Shown here in pieces: positions 8,637 to 43,039 of a stretch of 43,039 bases of DNA (position 1 is the first letter of the stretch; every line of letters starts with the position of its first letter). The translations under genes were made by a program, and so were the position numbers. The stretch is taken from sequence record PP920554.1; one strand, 5' to 3'. Source of the stretch: Escherichia phage SM_S24. The notes beneath the pieces were generated by a model, which ran no database searches, had not been told where the DNA came from, and saw only the letters and a program-made list of their open reading frames with translations.

Positions 8637-9230
8637 GTGGCTGAGGTCTACTCATTCGCCGCCACTATTGCTACGTGGGTGGATAAGACGAAGGAAAACA
8701 ACGATAAGGCGGTGCGGGCGTACGGGATGCAAATACTCGGACGCCTTATTGAGATCTCCCCGGTGGGCGACCCTCGCAGGTGGAAAATTAACAGGGCTTA
8801 CGCGCTGGCCCGCCAGCACGCGAACAAGGTGAACGCCGCGCAGCGTCGCAAGAATGGTGGCAAACTGAAGCGCGGGCAGAAAAAGCACGCCAGCGTCCTC
8901 GTCTCGTTCAAAACTAAAAACGGCAATGTGACATTCCGCCAGCGTGGCTGGGCCGCGAAGAATTACACCGGCGGGCGCTTCCGTGGTAACTGGCAGGTTA
9001 CGTTCGATCGCCCGGCTGTCGGCGCTATTGATCGCGTTGACAAGGCCGGAACGGCAACATTAGCCGCGGGGCGTGAAGTGCTGGCGCATTACGATTCGAG
9101 TGAATACGGGTCGATCTGGTTTACTAACAACGTGCCATACGCGCAGCGACTTGAGTATGGCTGGAGTAAACAAGCGCCCGCGGGGATTGTTCGCGTCGTA
9201 GCGGCAGAAATTAATTCGAAGGTGAAATAA
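8637..9230 (+). CDS. neck/tail component, HK97 gp10-like (putative)
   Basis: 197 aa, GTG start with RBS AAGGGGG; C-terminal YGSIWFTNNVPYAQRLEYG segment recalls HK97 gp10-type proteins; synteny. Confidence 0.45.
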   Translation: MAEVYSFAATIATWVDKTKENNDKAVRAYGMQILGRLIEISPVGDPRRWKINRAYALARQHANKVNAAQRRKNGGKLKRGQKKHASVLVSFKTKNGNVTFRQRGWAAKNYTGGRFRGNWQVTFDRPAVGAIDRVDKAGTATLAAGREVLAHYDSSEYGSIWFTNNVPYAQRLEYGWSKQAPAGIVRVVAAEINSKVK

Positions 9231-9652
9231 TGAGCAATACCGCAATCCGCAAAGCGCTTAACCGCGTGGTAGAAGAGTTATCGGTAAGCCTGAGCACTAG
9301 CCAGCGCCCGATCCAGGTTAACTGGGAGAACGTGAGCGGCGACCACGCAAAAGGCAGCGGTGTCTACCTGGAACCGTACCTGCTTCCGGCCCCTACCCAG
9401 TTTGTGGGCTTCCAGCAGAAGGGCCGTATCTATGCCGGTGTGTATCAGGTTGCCGTGGTGTTTCCTGCAGGCACTGGCACACAGTATGCGAGCGAACTGG
9501 CGGACGCCATCGCGACGTCTGACAAGTGGCAGGCCGTAAGGCTTACCGGCGCAGCGTTCCAGCTTCAGGACGCGCCATACACCAGTTCGGTGATTGAGGA
9601 TGTTGATCGCGCCCGCATCGTGGTTACAGTGCCCTATTCCTGTTGTGCCTGA
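9230..9652 (+). CDS. tail terminator / tail completion protein (putative)
   Basis: 140 aa, ATG overlaps the upstream stop; last gene before the major tail protein. Confidence 0.4.
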   Translation: MSNTAIRKALNRVVEELSVSLSTSQRPIQVNWENVSGDHAKGSGVYLEPYLLPAPTQFVGFQQKGRIYAGVYQVAVVFPAGTGTQYASELADAIATSDKWQAVRLTGAAFQLQDAPYTSSVIEDVDRARIVVTVPYSCCA

Positions 9653-20434: not shown

Positions 20435-20737
20435 ATGGCATTCGGTATCGCAACGTGGGACGCGCAAGGACGCCCAAACAACTACGGCATTAAACCGGTA
20501 AGCGTGATCGGAAGGATTCATCTTGCGGAAGGACAAAAATCAGGCGCATGGTCATTCCCTGTACCGGCGGGGATGAAGGTCGGATACGTGGTCGCACTGG
20601 ATAAAGGCGCGGTCGGGCCAGGCCGCAGAATAACCGCCAGCGGGAACACTATCACGGTTTCCGCGGCAAGTGCGGTAGGTGGCGGGGTTTACTCCGCATC
20701 TGAATGTGACGTTATTGTTTTTGTGGAGCGAGCATAA
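20435..20737 (+). CDS. hypothetical tail-associated protein
   Basis: 100 aa, RBS ACGAGG after the J terminator; position only. Confidence 0.35.
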   Translation: MAFGIATWDAQGRPNNYGIKPVSVIGRIHLAEGQKSGAWSFPVPAGMKVGYVVALDKGAVGPGRRITASGNTITVSAASAVGGGVYSASECDVIVFVERA

Positions 20738-21411
20738 TGGCTAATTACGGCGCGTTGATTGACTTACCAAACGGCAACCCGTTTATCACGCCAGAATCGA
20801 CGCCGTTTTGTCTATTCCGCCGTGTGGTTGTTGGGTCTTCGGCTAACGGCACTGCGCAGTCGGCGGCTGCCGATATTAATTTGGGCGGTGACTACCCCGC
20901 AATAGCGTTTGTGAAAACTACGCACACCGCCCAGCCGACCGTCGTAGGGTCTTCTCGCGTTGGTAATGTGGTGAAGGTGAGCGCCAGCAATCCATTCGGG
21001 AAGGGCTTCACGATGACGGCTTACATCTTTGCTATATTCCCACAGTCCCTTCCGCGGTGGGGCTTCGCTATTTGGGATAAGACGGGGAAGCTAGTGCTTA
21101 CTAATGAGAGTCGCGTACTAAGTGATTTAGTTACCGTCGGATCGCCAGGCGCTAACGGGGGGATTAACATTGACCAGACGCTAAACGGCAGCTACGCCGT
21201 CGCTCCGGGCATATTGGGGTCTACGCTGATCCGGTTTTTTGTGCAGGGCCAGCCGCAAGTAATATCGGTAACGGCGTACACGGGGGCCAGATTTGATGGG
21301 TCGCGAACGCGTATATCGGCAGCGTCGTCGGGGAACGCCACGGGGGATGTGGTGGGGTATACTAACAACGGCAACGCGATTATGGCGATTAACACCGCCA
21401 ATTATGATTGA
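20737..21411 (+). CDS. hypothetical tail fiber-associated protein
   Basis: 224 aa, Gly/Ser/Thr/Asn-rich; followed by a bidirectional terminator. Confidence 0.35.
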   Translation: MANYGALIDLPNGNPFITPESTPFCLFRRVVVGSSANGTAQSAAADINLGGDYPAIAFVKTTHTAQPTVVGSSRVGNVVKVSASNPFGKGFTMTAYIFAIFPQSLPRWGFAIWDKTGKLVLTNESRVLSDLVTVGSPGANGGINIDQTLNGSYAVAPGILGSTLIRFFVQGQPQVISVTAYTGARFDGSRTRISAASSGNATGDVVGYTNNGNAIMAINTANYD

Positions 21412-24653: not shown

Positions 24654-25119
24654 GTAGCTCACTCTCGCTCATTATTTCAATTTGTGCGCTGCCGCATGGC
24701 GGCGCTTCGTCAAATATTATCAATTGCTGGCACTTGTTATTGCTCGGCCCGACTTCACCGGTTACAGCATGTATGAATCGGATCCGCCAGTCCAGAAGAA
24801 TTATCAGGTTTGCAGTCTTCCTGGCCAGCTTCGCCCACTTCGTCGACGTGTCCTGATTCAGTAGCATGACCGTCCGGCGTCCGTGCGCTGCGCACTCTAC
24901 CCACGGCAGCGGATCGGAATACGGCGGATTGCACCACTTCCACCCTTTCAACTCGGACCAGTCCACATCAAGCGCGCTGTGTTCCGCCGTGAAGTAACGT
25001 GGTAGCAGATGATTGGTGTCGCTTGCCGCCATATCGTAACGGAATCGGTATTTCTGACGAAGCGGTTTAAATAAAGCTGGCGGCGTGCGCCAGCTATCTT
25101 TTTGCTCATTCTCCGTCAT
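24634..25119 (-). CDS. DNA N6-adenine methyltransferase (phage Dam-like)
   Basis: 161 aa; WRTPP near the N-terminus, DMAASD and catalytic CNPPY motifs typical of small phage N6-adenine methyltransferases. Confidence 0.75.
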   Translation of the reverse strand: MTENEQKDSWRTPPALFKPLRQKYRFRYDMAASDTNHLLPRYFTAEHSALDVDWSELKGWKWCNPPYSDPLPWVECAAHGRRTVMLLNQDTSTKWAKLARKTANLIILLDWRIRFIHAVTGEVGPSNNKCQQLIIFDEAPPCGSAQIEIMSESELHEYLNR

Positions 25120-25564
25120 AGTCGGGATCTATCGCATACAGGGCGGTTTTCTTGCCACTGGATAGCACGCGTTGGACTCGGGATAGCTCCGCCCTACTGA
25201 GCGGTCGGCTATCGGAATAGTAGCTGCCGTTTGCACGCCACGCTATACGCACCAGTCCTTTCCGCGGGATCGAAGACTGGCTGCCCTTCGGACGGACGTA
25301 CTCCTCGGCCAGTTTGCAATGCTCGCGCAGACCTTCGGCAGTGATGCGGTTTAGCGCGACGGTGGTTGTGTACCCGGTGCGCTGCATAATACCCATCAAC
25401 TCATACAGCAGTTCGAAGCGCTCCTCTAACTCCTTGCGCATCTTTTCCTCGCCTTCATAGCTCGCCATGTAGGTATCCGCCAGCGCGTTCGCCCGTTCGA
25501 CCTGTTCGCGGGCTTCGAGGCATTGCGCGGCCCAGTAATTTTTCTCTTCTTGTAAAATTTTCAT
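25106..25564 (-). CDS. hypothetical protein
   Basis: 152 aa, RBS GGAGA; first gene of a leftward operon downstream of paired TGCAACCAAT boxes. Confidence 0.4.
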   Translation of the reverse strand: MKILQEEKNYWAAQCLEAREQVERANALADTYMASYEGEEKMRKELEERFELLYELMGIMQRTGYTTTVALNRITAEGLREHCKLAEEYVRPKGSQSSIPRKGLVRIAWRANGSYYSDSRPLSRAELSRVQRVLSSGKKTALYAIDPDYDGE

Positions 25565-25645
25565 CGTGTTGTCTCCAGGTATTAAAAAAGGCGTCCAAAC
25601 CGGACACCCTTAAGATAATGCAACCAATATGATTATGCAACCAAT

Positions 25646-25969
25646 TTACGAATAAAAATTTGGGTCGCGTGCAACGTCTACTAGATACAGGTTACTCATG
25701 CGATTGCCGTAGTGCCCCGGTGTGCGCTGGCGGCACACAACGGCGAAGCCTGGTGGAATTGTATTGCCCGTCTCGATAATCCACGCCACGCGTGCGCCAG
25801 ACAGCGTCTTGCCGTTGTATTCGATGCGCGTGCCACCATCGGCAGTGTTAAGGTTGCCAATCTTACATCCTGTGGACTTCAGGCGAATGACACCGGTCTT
25901 GCTGTCGTAGGAAAAAAGCTGATTGGTCATTGCCACTGAAAAGTCGATTGCGTCGAATGCAGTATTCAT
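25646..25969 (-). CDS. hypothetical protein
   Basis: 107 aa, ATGA coupling with the upstream gene; faint resemblance to HNH_3/NUMOD-type DNA-binding proteins but no catalytic His seen. Confidence 0.4.
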   Translation of the reverse strand: MNTAFDAIDFSVAMTNQLFSYDSKTGVIRLKSTGCKIGNLNTADGGTRIEYNGKTLSGARVAWIIETGNTIPPGFAVVCRQRTPGHYGNRMSNLYLVDVARDPNFYS

Positions 25970-26661
25970 TTTAAATTTTCCTCGTTAACCGCTATCGCGA
26001 AGCCGCGCGGGGTGAGTGAGCGGATTAATTTTGTACGAGCGGATTTACCACCGAGGCGACTATACTGCTTCGAGTACCCTTTTTCAACGAAAACAGGTTT
26101 CTTCTCTGGCATACGGAAGCCGTTTCCAGTCCATAAGCAGGTCAGCTTCGGATATGAATCGCGGGCGTTGATGTATTCAGGGAACAACGGATGTACGTCA
26201 TCCTCCGGCAGATATCCCCCATACTCCCACGGGTCGAACGAGTGATCAGGCTTGCGCCACTGGGTGGAAAGCACACTGCGCGGATTCTCAATCATATATG
26301 GCACTTCGAAGAAGTCACCCAGGTAAGCGGCGATCTTCGCGGTTCGCACCGCCTTAAGCTGAAAGGCGGGGTCTTTTGCACGCTTGCGCGGGAAAGCTGG
26401 CGCGCCGCTCACTGCCAGATCCGTACACGGAGGGAACGCATAGATTATATCCGGCGTACCGAAATCGCCATTCATCGCGCGGTCCACGAAGTCCAGGTCG
26501 ATAAACTCATTGCGATACCGTATTCCGCGACCATAAATCCGGTAGTCAAGGTACGACCCGTGATCGGCTTCGGAGTAGTTAAAACAGTAGCACTTATGCC
26601 CCATCTCGGCAGCACGCTCAATCATCAAGCCGCTGCCGTCAAACAATGACCAGATTATCAT
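25966..26661 (-). CDS. DNA cytosine-5 methyltransferase-like protein (short)
   Basis: 231 aa; SLFDGSG (motif I-like FxGxG), AFPPCTD (motif IV-like Pro-Cys), MIENP (motif VI-like ENV); unusually short for a complete C5 enzyme. Confidence 0.45.
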   Translation of the reverse strand: MIIWSLFDGSGLMIERAAEMGHKCYCFNYSEADHGSYLDYRIYGRGIRYRNEFIDLDFVDRAMNGDFGTPDIIYAFPPCTDLAVSGAPAFPRKRAKDPAFQLKAVRTAKIAAYLGDFFEVPYMIENPRSVLSTQWRKPDHSFDPWEYGGYLPEDDVHPLFPEYINARDSYPKLTCLWTGNGFRMPEKKPVFVEKGYSKQYSRLGGKSARTKLIRSLTPRGFAIAVNEENLK

Positions 26662-35090: not shown

Positions 35091-35120
35091 ATGATAGATT
35101 GGTTGCAGGATGGGTGTCAA
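35091..35120 (-). promoter_or_regulatory. leftward early promoter (sigma70-like)
   Basis: minus strand TTGACA-18 nt-TATCAT; TGCAACCAAT box inside the spacer. Confidence 0.55.
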
Positions 35121-35131
35121 CAACTAATTTC

Positions 35132-35165
35132 AAAAAAAAAGCGCCGAGGCAAAATGCACCGGCGC
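35132..35165 (-). terminator. intrinsic terminator upstream of the leftward early promoter (minus strand)
   Basis: GCGCCGGTGCATTTTGCCTCGGCGC followed by nine T on the minus strand. Confidence 0.6.
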
Positions 35166-35195
35166 TAACCAATAAGAGACAATGAGACGGGAATT

Positions 35196-35224
35196 ATTAT
35201 TACACGCGTGCGCGCCCGTTTCAA
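35196..35224 (-). promoter_or_regulatory. second leftward promoter-like element upstream of the terminator
   Basis: minus strand TTGAAA-17 nt-AATAAT; predicted start about 58 nt upstream of the 35132-35165 terminator end. Confidence 0.35.
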
Positions 35225-40343: not shown

Positions 40344-40352
40344 TGATATAGT
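40344..40352 (+). promoter_or_regulatory. extended -10-like element (TGaTATAGT) inside the 5' arm of the pre-holin hairpin
   Basis: TG, one nt, TATAGT; a transcript started here would begin within the hairpin stem. Confidence 0.3.
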
Positions 40353-40384
40353 CCCAGTGAGCTAAAACTTACTGGGACTTTTTT
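40350..40384 (+). terminator. intrinsic terminator hairpin immediately upstream of the holin start codon
   Basis: AGTCCCAGTGAG-CTAAAA-CTTACTGGGACT followed by TTTTTT; the T-run ends at the holin ATG. Confidence 0.6.
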
Positions 40385-41578: not shown

Positions 41579-41604
41579 AAGCCCGGTTAATTCCGGGCTT
41601 TTTA
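41579..41604 (+). terminator. intrinsic terminator after the lysis cassette
   Basis: AGCCCGG-TTAATT-CCGGGCT followed by TTTTAT. Confidence 0.6.
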
Positions 41605-41608
41605 TTGC

Positions 41609-41638
41609 TTGACTTGCAACCAATTAATAGCTCATACT
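41609..41638 (+). promoter_or_regulatory. promoter-like element upstream of the leader-like peptide and HTH-phosphoesterase gene
   Basis: TTGACT then TGCAACCAAT in the spacer, -10-like CATACT, second TGCGACCAAT downstream. Confidence 0.4.
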
Positions 41639-41668: not shown

Positions 41669-41749
41669 ATGGCACGTAATGATATTTGGGTATTGGCAAT
41701 CTGGTCAGCCGCGGGATTTATCGGTATGGTTATTTGCGAATTGATATAG
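41669..41749 (+). CDS. hydrophobic mini-ORF (leader-like peptide)
   Basis: 26 aa (MARNDIWVLAIWSAAGFIGMVICELI) with RBS AGGAG 9 nt upstream, followed by a perfect 9-bp hairpin; may be regulatory rather than a stable protein. Confidence 0.2.
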   Translation: MARNDIWVLAIWSAAGFIGMVICELI

Positions 41750-41810
41750 CCCGCCGCCATACGGACCGTGGTATATTGTCCACGGTCCACTAATCAGGAA
41801 TTAATTAAAT

Positions 41811-42953
41811 ATGCACCCGCAAACTAAAATTACCGATGAGCAATTGATCGCAGAAATTCAGGCAGGGACTACGGTTAAAGATATTGCGAAGAAATACGGG
41901 ATTGCCCTACGCAATGTTTATATGCGGAAAGCCCGCCTGTCGAAAAAAGGCATTGGACACGGCAACGATGCCGTAATACGCAAGCGCGTTGCCGATGGGT
42001 TTGGGGTTAAGCGCGTATCGGCCCTGGTGCGCGGCAATGGCGAAGAGGTCATGTCGTGGGTCATCACTGAGCAGGACAAAGAGCGCCAACTCGAAGCCAT
42101 GCGCGCTGTTGTCGAGGGTATGAACAGCGAAATCACACCGGCAGCGCCAGTAAAAGCCCCGCCAGTACCGATCCAGGCGCTAGACTTGCTCAACCTGTAC
42201 ACCGTGTCAGACTTCCACCTGGGCATGTTGGCATGGGGCGAGGAGACTGGCGAAGACTGGGATATGGCGATCGCCGAAGACCTGTTCTACCGCTGGTTTG
42301 TCGAAGCCTTCGCACGCGCCCCGGACGCAGGCACTGCCGTGATCAATATCCTCGGCGATATGGCGCACTTTGATAGCCTTGATGCCGTCACACCGGCAAG
42401 CGGTCACGTATTGGACGCCGACACCCGATACCAGAAGTTAGTCCGCTACATGATCCGCATGGTGCGCAACGTGGTAGACCTAGCGCTGCAAAAACACCAC
42501 AAAGTCAAACTGCTAATCGTCCAGGGTAATCATGACGAGTCAGGCATGATTTGGCTTGCTGAGATGTTCAACACGCTGTACGAGAACGAGCCGCGCGTCG
42601 ATGTGGATACGTCCCCGGACGTCTACAAAATGGTGCAGCACGGTAAGACCACGCTATTCTTCCACCACGGGCACAAAGCGCGCTTCGATGCTATCGAAAC
42701 CGTCATGATTTCTAAATTCAGACAGGCGTTCGGGTCGAGCGAATACAGCTACGCGCATGTCGGTCACTTGCACCACCAGAAGATTGTTGAATCCCGCAAC
42801 ATGATTGTTGAACAGCACCGGACCCTCGCAGCGAAAGACGCATATGCCAGCCGTGGTGGTTGGATGTCCGGTCGCAGTGCCAACGTAATCACCTATAGCG
42901 CCAACTACGGCGAAGTGGCGCGCTTAACCATTAGCCCGGAAATGTTGAAGTAA
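41811..42953 (+). CDS. HTH domain + calcineurin-like metallophosphoesterase (SbcD/Mre11-like motif set)
   Basis: 380 aa; N-terminal HTH-like TVKDIAKKYGIALRNVYMRK; motifs SDFHLG, GDMAHFD, QGNHDE, FHHGH, GHLHHQ in the canonical metallophosphoesterase order. Confidence 0.55.
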   Translation: MHPQTKITDEQLIAEIQAGTTVKDIAKKYGIALRNVYMRKARLSKKGIGHGNDAVIRKRVADGFGVKRVSALVRGNGEEVMSWVITEQDKERQLEAMRAVVEGMNSEITPAAPVKAPPVPIQALDLLNLYTVSDFHLGMLAWGEETGEDWDMAIAEDLFYRWFVEAFARAPDAGTAVINILGDMAHFDSLDAVTPASGHVLDADTRYQKLVRYMIRMVRNVVDLALQKHHKVKLLIVQGNHDESGMIWLAEMFNTLYENEPRVDVDTSPDVYKMVQHGKTTLFFHHGHKARFDAIETVMISKFRQAFGSSEYSYAHVGHLHHQKIVESRNMIVEQHRTLAAKDAYASRGGWMSGRSANVITYSANYGEVARLTISPEMLK

Positions 42954-43039
42954 CGGCAACCCATAAGCCTCCCAGCCTGCCGATTTGGTGGGCTTTTTTG
43001 TGCCTGTTATAATCCCCTTAGATGGCAGGGCCGTCTCCT

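Follow-up and report, generated by a model that had tools for sequence, protein, structure and literature searches.

The 43,039-nucleotide (nt) sequence of Escherichia phage SM_S24 (record PP920554.1, the whole of which is called the window here) carries at 41811..42953, on the + strand, a coding sequence for a protein of 380 amino acids (aa) plus stop in which an N-terminal helix-turn-helix (HTH) domain is joined to a metallophosphoesterase (MPE) domain. From its sequence, a structural model and the properties of analogous enzymes we infer that this HTH-MPE protein is, on balance, a Rad50-independent, HTH-tethered two-metal DNA phosphodiesterase with a role in phage DNA metabolism during lytic growth. 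The proposed enzyme would be of the Mre11/SbcD/PolD-DP1 structural type and would be brought to DNA by its own N-terminus. The tri-helical HTH, possibly together with a beta-hairpin linker, would bind duplex DNA, two divalent metals (probably Mn2+) would be held by D134, H136, D183, N240, H286, H319 and H321, the transition state would be stabilised by H241, and the MPE domain would hydrolyse DNA phosphodiester bonds as an exonuclease, an endonuclease or both. By sequence the protein belongs to a known and catalogued family, PHROG 704 / T1 gp16, and over its full length (residues 5-380) it aligns with the PHROG 704 'DNA repair exonuclease' profile (positions 2-390 of 390; E 4.7e-161), too strong a match to be due to chance; that family name is itself a prediction.

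Architecture and conservation of the protein

The catalytic domain (residues 121-380; 42171..42950, + strand), recognised by Pfam, by alignment and in an AlphaFold2 (AF2) model, contains the five motifs of the calcineurin-like MPE superfamily (DxH, GD, GNH(D/E), H and GHxH) in canonical order, in the forms D134-x-H136, G182-D183-x-x-H186, G239-N240-H241-D242, H285-H286-G-H288 and G318-H319-x-H321. Across 101 representative homologues (31-47% identity), D134, H136, G182, D183, T194, N240, H241, H286, G318 and H321 are invariant (101/101), and H186, D188, D202, R206, D242, H285, H288 and H319 are conserved in at least 90%, H319 in 95/101. H186, D188, T194, D202 and R206 mark a strongly conserved, family-specific insert between motifs II and III. 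An earlier interpretation made from the letters of the window alone (the sequence-only reading) had proposed this pairing of an HTH with a complete MPE motif set, and had named poor conservation of the motif residues among homologues as grounds for giving it up. The architecture is borne out by the family-level HTH matches described below, the AF2 helices and the five ordered motifs, and the core residues proved to be kept in every homologue aligned.

Scored singly, the catalytic domain falls short of the Pfam gathering scores (22.9 bits against a cutoff of 27 for Metallophos, 20.1 against 21.5 for Metallophos_2), and E<=0.01 is reached for Metallophos in 23/101 and for Metallophos_2 in 17/101 of the homologues. 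These sub-cutoff scores, with so few homologues matching, mark a divergent MPE branch that is poorly captured by the Pfam models. In NCBIfam the catalytic domain matches only the ligase-associated endonuclease PdeM, and neither NCBIfam nor PADLOC contains a model for the HTH-MPE family. The AF2 model built from the 101-sequence alignment (predicted local distance difference test score, pLDDT, 92.4; predicted template modelling score, pTM, 0.81) places an HTH, a beta-hairpin with a helix, and the beta-sandwich typical of the MPE fold one after another; it is the model used throughout, the single-sequence model (pLDDT 44) being unusable.

The tri-helical HTH (residues 9-45; 41835..41945, + strand) resembles those of LuxR and sigma-70 region 4, as judged from Pfam, from comparison of profiles with Protein Data Bank (PDB) sequences and from the AF2 model, in which the helices span residues 9-17, 22-29 and 33-45 with pLDDT 93-95. 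A single-sequence Pfam search returned weak matches below the cutoffs (GerE, E 0.031; HTH_28; HTH_7; residues 10-46), and the N-termini of the 101 homologues gave Sigma70_r4_2 at 1.5e-9, GerE at 2.4e-8 and HTH_8 at 2.6e-7, together with HTH_1 (22 members), HTH_50 and HTH_23. The best matches of the family profile among PDB sequences are GerE, RhlR, DesR and sigma-H. We are confident from these profile and model data that a conserved HTH is fused to the MPE domain, and DNA binding is predicted. The two domains are connected by a linker module (residues 53-107; 41967..42131, + strand; AF2, pLDDT 66-89) consisting of a short helix, a long beta-hairpin (residues 64-88) and a helix at 90-107, within which G77 and W83 are at least 90% conserved. 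Designed armadillo-repeat proteins that a single-sequence PDB search matched to the linker were judged spurious.

Relationships to nucleases and phosphatases

The sequence-only reading had likened the protein to SbcD/Mre11 nucleases or to Ser/Thr phosphatases. Its motif variants are SDFHLG (SDxHLG in the family), GDxxH and GNHD, forms that match the Mre11/SbcD style. Ser/Thr phosphatases of the phosphoprotein phosphatase (PPP) group, such as lambda NinI, have GDxHG, GDxVDRG and GNHE motifs and a PPP-like fold, and the HTH-MPE protein shows neither; what it has in common with the NinI type is that both are MPE-superfamily proteins encoded near the start of the late genes of a siphophage. The presence of SDxHLG, GDxxH and GNHD in place of the PPP forms leans toward a nuclease-like enzyme, and in fold the model is similar to the Mre11/SbcD nuclease domain. 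Membership of the SbcD/Mre11 family by sequence was rejected: an hhalign comparison with E. coli SbcD covers the GNHD motif only. In a search of the PDB the catalytic part of the family profile found T. maritima Mre11/SbcD weakly (E 0.47-1.8) and also the nuclease MPE, and E. coli SbcD and T4 gp47 both fall in PHROG 100, with no match to PHROG 704 or 284.

Mre11, SbcD and T4 gp47 differ further in working with a partner (Rad50, SbcC and gp46, respectively) and in lacking the N-terminal HTH of the window protein. No SMC-like ORF (open reading frame) of the Rad50/SbcC type is present among the ORFs of at least 475 aa in the complete genome, as the sequence-only reading had also noted, and none was seen in any homologue neighbourhood examined. 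The large ORFs scanned against PHROG encode DNA polymerase A, a helicase-primase, an SF2 helicase and a PHROG 69 exonuclease; two ORFs of 893 and 1139 aa in the tail region, outside that scan, are presumably the tape measure and tail tip proteins, by analogy with T1. The protein ends at residue 380, immediately after the MPE core, and for this reason the Mre11-type C-terminal capping domain and the Rad50-binding regions appear to be absent, as far as its length suggests. The small subunit DP1 of archaeal PolD, a 3'-5' proofreading exonuclease, is 13% identical and works with a DP2 partner that the window phage lacks; the polymerase of this phage is instead of family A and has its own exonuclease domain, and a polymerase proofreading domain has been described in the closely related SECphi4 (bioRxiv 10.1101/2022.08.27.505566).

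It is also conceivable, if unlikely, that the enzyme is a phosphatase or a small-molecule phosphodiesterase, dephosphorylating proteins as lambda NinI does or destroying messengers (cyclic nucleoside monophosphates, cyclic oligonucleotides or diadenosine tetraphosphate) to counter host signalling or defence. Enzymes of both sorts occur in the MPE superfamily, and GenBank records often label members of the family 'phosphoesterase'. A DNA-binding HTH is nevertheless hard to square with a soluble small-molecule substrate, the catalytic domain matches no PADLOC or anti-defence family, and in Rhizobium phage 16-3 a separate NinI-like phosphatase is encoded beside the homologue, which argues for distinct roles. 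The manipulation of host signalling that the sequence-only reading had entertained thus found no positive evidence.

The closest parallel in design is A1 of phage T5, a predicted metallophosphatase reported to be the only pre-early factor that host DNA degradation requires and to suffice for it (bioRxiv 10.64898/2026.04.02.716235), in which a GcrA-like DNA-binding domain has been found (bioRxiv 10.1101/2022.08.27.505566). A1 and the HTH-MPE protein share a DNA-binding or HTH N-terminus, a predicted metallophosphatase with Mre11/DP1-like features and the lack of a Rad50 partner, and both occur in virulent coliphages. A1 differs in being 556 aa long, in its only PHROG match (PHROG 1745), in its pre-early expression and in being needed also for second-step DNA transfer. 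Whether A1 was entered singly or as a profile of 60 sequences, hhalign aligned it to the PHROG 704 family at motif III only (vvEsNHDxaxxxWL); the profile-profile comparison covered 31 columns there (E 9e-4, probability 23%), and homology across the catalytic domain was not found. Homologues of A1 at 46-48% identity (P0343, P0345-P0347, P0349, P0373 and P0385) have N-terminal Pfam matches to HTH_23, HTH_38, HTH_7 and CENP-B N, although A1 itself shows no HTH in the PHROG scan or among precomputed Pfam matches, and GDxH, NHD, HGH and GHTH are invariant in the A1 alignment. These HTH domains and conserved MPE motifs show that the design of an HTH with an MPE and no Rad50 recurs, and A1 is treated as an analogue and not as a member of the same family.

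A second analogue is Gp48 of mycobacteriophage A10ZJ24, a stand-alone MPE for which both phosphodiesterase and DNase activities have been demonstrated. It degrades DNA in vitro as well as in vivo, disrupts host DNA, is toxic to the host and is required if the phage is to replicate its DNA in M. tuberculosis (PMC12287305). The mycobacteriophage cluster A enzymes (A10ZJ24 Gp48, Bxb1 gp47 and L5 gp54) likewise lack a partner, but are of about 255 aa, have no HTH and belong to PHROG 221, and the similarity of the Bxb1 gp47 family to the HTH-MPE family is at the level of motifs only.

Family distribution, gene neighbourhoods and possible roles

Homologues were found by tblastn in 2,059/50,697 phage records (about 4%), including phages of Escherichia, Klebsiella, Salmonella, Vibrio and Campylobacter and Rhizobium phage 16-3, and an exhaustive HMMER scan returned 4,677 clusters at 50% identity with E<=1e-3. 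The family comprises groups in Drexlerviridae, Dhillonvirus, Kagunavirus, Jersey-like phages and Jedunavirus, and PHROG 704 also takes in 16-3 p044 and a Campylobacter phage homologue; identity to the Drexlerviridae and Jedunavirus homologues is 42-55%. In Drexlerviridae the gene is core (508/522; PMC13164509), and it precedes the lysis cassette in these 508 and in T1 (T1 record; PMC13164509). The record of T1 gp16 bears the product name of PHROG 704, and the T1 and window proteins are homologous over their full length, with a common HTH-linker-MPE architecture and a terminator 3' of the gene in both phages. T1-like phages differ in gene position only, the gene standing ahead of the lysis cassette there and after it in the window.

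The coding sequence in the window starts with ATG, preceded by AGGA 11 nt upstream, and the homologues of phages Zumzum and PaulFeyerabend use the same start. Identity to annotated Dhillonvirus proteins is 98-99.7%, and a megablast search with the last 2 kb of the window recovered 156 phage records at 80-95% identity, nearly all of them Escherichia or Shigella Dhillonvirus (HK578-like siphophages). The last 60 nt and the first 60 nt of the window are contiguous in Zumzum, and the window is a complete, circularly permuted Dhillonvirus genome. Since its end joins its start in this way, the HTH-MPE stop codon lies 108 nt upstream of the start (position 23) of the gene for the small terminase subunit TerS (ORF 23-595, PHROG 3064 terminase), which 22 nt precede in the window and which is followed by ORFs for the large subunit TerL and the portal, whose identity is taken from the positions of these genes in the Zumzum annotation. 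The gene stands after the lysis cassette and just upstream of the terminase genes; the latter placement, on a circular map, had been given by the sequence-only reading and is correct. The flanks are otherwise collinear with those of Zumzum, in which an extra 70-aa ORF (Zumzum 9140-9352), absent from the window (42953-42974), overlaps the stop of the MPE gene.

That position had led the sequence-only reading to suggest late gene control or DNA end processing for packaging, and neither idea gains much support, since adjacency to the terminase genes is a peculiarity of Dhillonvirus and is not conserved. It is very improbable that the protein is a packaging-associated nuclease that makes or processes terminase DNA ends through pac cleavage, trimming or the removal of branches before headful packaging. 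The short distance to TerS on the circular map, a promoter type common to the TerS unit, and a Vibrio phage in which the homologue lies upstream of head genes and beside an HNH endonuclease, in a neighbourhood with HNH between endolysins, would fit such a role; set against them are the unconserved synteny with terminase (PMC13164509 and the homologue neighbourhoods), the presence of the family in both pac-type (T1) and cos-type, temperate (16-3) phages, and an HTH that shows no similarity to the N-terminus of TerS.

The common thread of the neighbourhoods is DNA and nucleotide metabolism. In T1, gp16 (ST16) follows a helicase and Dam and precedes HNH and the lysis genes, an annotated rho-independent terminator following it, and a helicase and a Dam methyltransferase are near the homologue in tunus as well. 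In temperate 16-3 the homologue is accompanied by the NinI-like phosphatase and an HD deoxynucleoside monophosphate (dNMP) phosphatase, in Ruegeria by an HD hydrolase, in a metagenomic neighbourhood by DnaB, UvsX and dCMP deaminase, and in Campylobacter Fletchervirus, where the homologue is without an HTH, by a DNA ligase and a Holliday-junction resolvase. The homologue of Campylobacter phage F365 (3848-4801), a 317-aa PHROG 704 member lacking the HTH, is annotated 'recombination endonuclease' and has the DNA ligase gene on one side and the tail sheath gene on the other, the Holliday-junction resolvase being nearby.

In a Jedunavirus the gene is directly flanked by genes for polynucleotide kinase (Pnk), with a dNMP kinase also in the neighbourhood, and in Drexlerviridae without the SH3 gene the most frequent next genes are those for Pnk and dNMP kinase (PMC13164509). 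This association would suit an RNA or DNA end-healing enzyme which, like the calcineurin-type domain of bacterial Pnkp, removes 2',3'-cyclic or 3'-phosphates and so works with Pnk to repair cuts made by host defence nucleases. Such a role is very doubtful indeed: the ten window proteins scanned against PHROG, many small ORFs being outside that scan, include no Pnk or ligase, related genome annotations list neither near the gene, the Pnk gene of T1 is some 13 kb distant on the circular map (about 36 kb by the linear coordinates of the record), and the HTH points to duplex DNA.

Two versions of the HTH-tethered DNA phosphodiesterase seem the most likely. In the first it would break down host DNA for shut-off and nucleotide supply, as in the case of the analogous T5 A1 and mycobacteriophage Gp48, and it is these analogues and the dNMP kinase association that suggest it; in the second it would trim ends and branched structures in phage replication or recombination intermediates. 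We hold only tentatively, and as a possibility well short of the general nuclease reading, that the PHROG 704 proteins, T1 gp16 and the Dhillonvirus protein among them, are the host-chromosome-degrading nucleases of T1-like and HK578-like phages. The genetically defined host-DNA-degradation gene of T1 ('2.5') could not be tied to gp16. The HTH-MPE family was also considered as the nuclease implicated by the Metis and PUA-Cal-HAD papers and was rejected, T4/T2 denA being implicated there. The parts seen of the SECphi4 escape-mutant study do not mention the HTH-MPE gene, and the phage transposon-sequencing preprint does not cover phages that bear it.

Several observations weigh against a DNA-degrading enzyme of this kind. 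The literature search for biochemical data on any PHROG 704 member found none. Sequence links to SbcD, T5 A1 and Bxb1 gp47 are limited to common motifs (motif III only in hhalign), and T5 A1 is not in the top 50 viral structural neighbours of the HTH-MPE model. The occurrence of the family in temperate phage 16-3 is a poor fit with wholesale destruction of host DNA, and the promoter type that the gene has in common with the lysis and terminase genes, described below, may indicate late rather than early expression. Finally, a defence that senses dNMPs released from degraded DNA is reported to act on a T1-like phage, T-even phages and T5, and Dhillonviruses are unlisted among the phages it protects against (bioRxiv 10.64898/2026.01.15.699771).

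Transcriptional context and meaning for the family

Flanked by terminators and provided with an extended -10 promoter, the HTH-MPE gene would be transcribed as a unit of its own, set between lysis cassette and terminase operon. Upstream, a terminator-like hairpin with a T-run (41579..41610, hairpin 41579-41600, + strand; an 8-bp stem with 6 GC pairs and a T tail) closes the lysis cassette; its stem is kept in PaulFeyerabend and its 5' arm in Zumzum. An extended -10 promoter-like element, TGGTATATT (41769..41777, + strand), lies 33 nt ahead of the start codon and lacks a recognisable -35, and the surrounding block ACCGTGGTATATTG is invariant in three aligned Dhillonviruses. Directly after the gene comes a second terminator-like hairpin with a T-run (42974..43004, hairpin 42974-42994, + strand), present also in Zumzum, and a pattern match identifies a promoter-like site facing TerS (42985..43013, + strand), TTGGTG-N17-TATAAT, with the extended -10 TGTTATAAT and a -35 read from the sequence. 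The extended -10 pattern TGnTATAWT has four matches in the window, all on the + strand, at 21030, 40058, 41769 and 43005, where about 1.6 are expected by chance and four were reached in 7/100 shuffles. The last three precede the lysis genes, the MPE gene and TerS, respectively, and the first falls within ORF 20737-21411, the tail-fibre ORF (21730) being about 700 nt further downstream; taken together, the matches may represent a single class of promoter. A strong terminator-like hairpin (12-bp stem and T-run) is also present at 40350-40379, immediately before the first holin gene (40385). That terminators set lysis cassette, MPE gene and terminase operon apart from one another hints at control by read-through or antitermination.

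Overlapping the putative -10 is a perfect 9-8-9 palindrome, GGACCGTGG-N8-CCACGGTCC (41763..41788, no strand assigned), a candidate operator or RNA hairpin. It is the sole exact copy in the genome, its half-site likewise being without further copies, and it appears weakly conserved, with one mismatch in PaulFeyerabend and the right arm lost in Zumzum. One explanation for these features would be that the protein is a regulator of late-gene transcription whose HTH binds the promoters of the late units next to its gene (those of terminase in Dhillonvirus and of lysis in T1-like phages), with the MPE as sensor or modulator. The sigma-70 region 4 / LuxR type of the HTH, the location of the gene immediately upstream of late blocks in two phage groups, as with lambda Q, the unique palindrome over the gene's own -10 element, the many terminators that punctuate the region and one GenBank record labelled 'transcriptional regulator' all speak for it. 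We nonetheless regard it as quite improbable: the invariant part of the protein is its catalytic residues and not its HTH, homologues without the HTH exist (the 317-aa Campylobacter phage protein and representatives of 274-311 aa), the gene lies elsewhere within replication modules away from late operons, and the palindrome occurs only once and is poorly conserved.

Downstream of the post-lysis terminator and ahead of the MPE gene lies a hydrophobic mini-ORF of 26 codons (41669-41749; MARNDIWVLAIWSAAGFIGMVICELI) with the ribosome-binding site GAGAGGAG and a promoter-like site of its own (TTGACT-N18-CATACT, 41609-41638); it is kept in PaulFeyerabend, with synonymous or conservative changes and in an unannotated gap, and the whole block is deleted in Zumzum. 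Elsewhere in the window, two strong sigma-70-like promoters (TTGACA-N18-TATCAT and TTGAAA-N17-AATAAT, - strand, 35091-35224) face the leftward replication genes in a divergent region between two early gene blocks. A DNA methyltransferase gene (25966-26661, - strand, PHROG 757) has small ORFs beside it (window ~25100-26661). In SECphi18 the gene for the 74-aa Ksap1, the trigger of KpAvs2, is described as having a methyltransferase gene on one side and a phosphatase gene on the other (PMC11564622), and because of that arrangement a candidate Ksap1 homologue is likely, by analogy, to lie near the methyltransferase gene of the window. The HTH-MPE protein itself was considered as this Dhillonvirus trigger of KpAvs2 and rejected on the grounds of the size and location of Ksap1 (PMC11564622).

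Partner-less phage MPE nucleases are already a known kind, and the finding described here is a correct reading of a known but uncharacterised family and not a new system; as it stands, the window offers no new biology beyond what the family annotation suggests. The PHROG 704 family is nonetheless among the most widespread uncharacterised enzymes of enterobacterial siphophages, and many of the phages that bear it serve in therapy or as models for defence systems (BASEL Bas01-18 and the SECphi phages). Were its members to prove self-sufficient DNA nucleases, this would account for the ability of these phages to process or destroy DNA with no Rad50 partner and would offer a handle on the classical host-DNA breakdown and high-frequency transduction phenotypes of T1, and defences that sense DNA degradation would have in the enzyme a likely trigger or target. 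If the more tentative host-degrading role should hold, the family would represent a second, independently assembled host-takeover nuclease of the HTH and Mre11-like MPE design without Rad50, beside T5 A1, in which self would be told from non-self through the HTH or through DNA methylation by the phage itself, and the HTH-MPE protein would be the source of the degradation products sensed by newly described defences.

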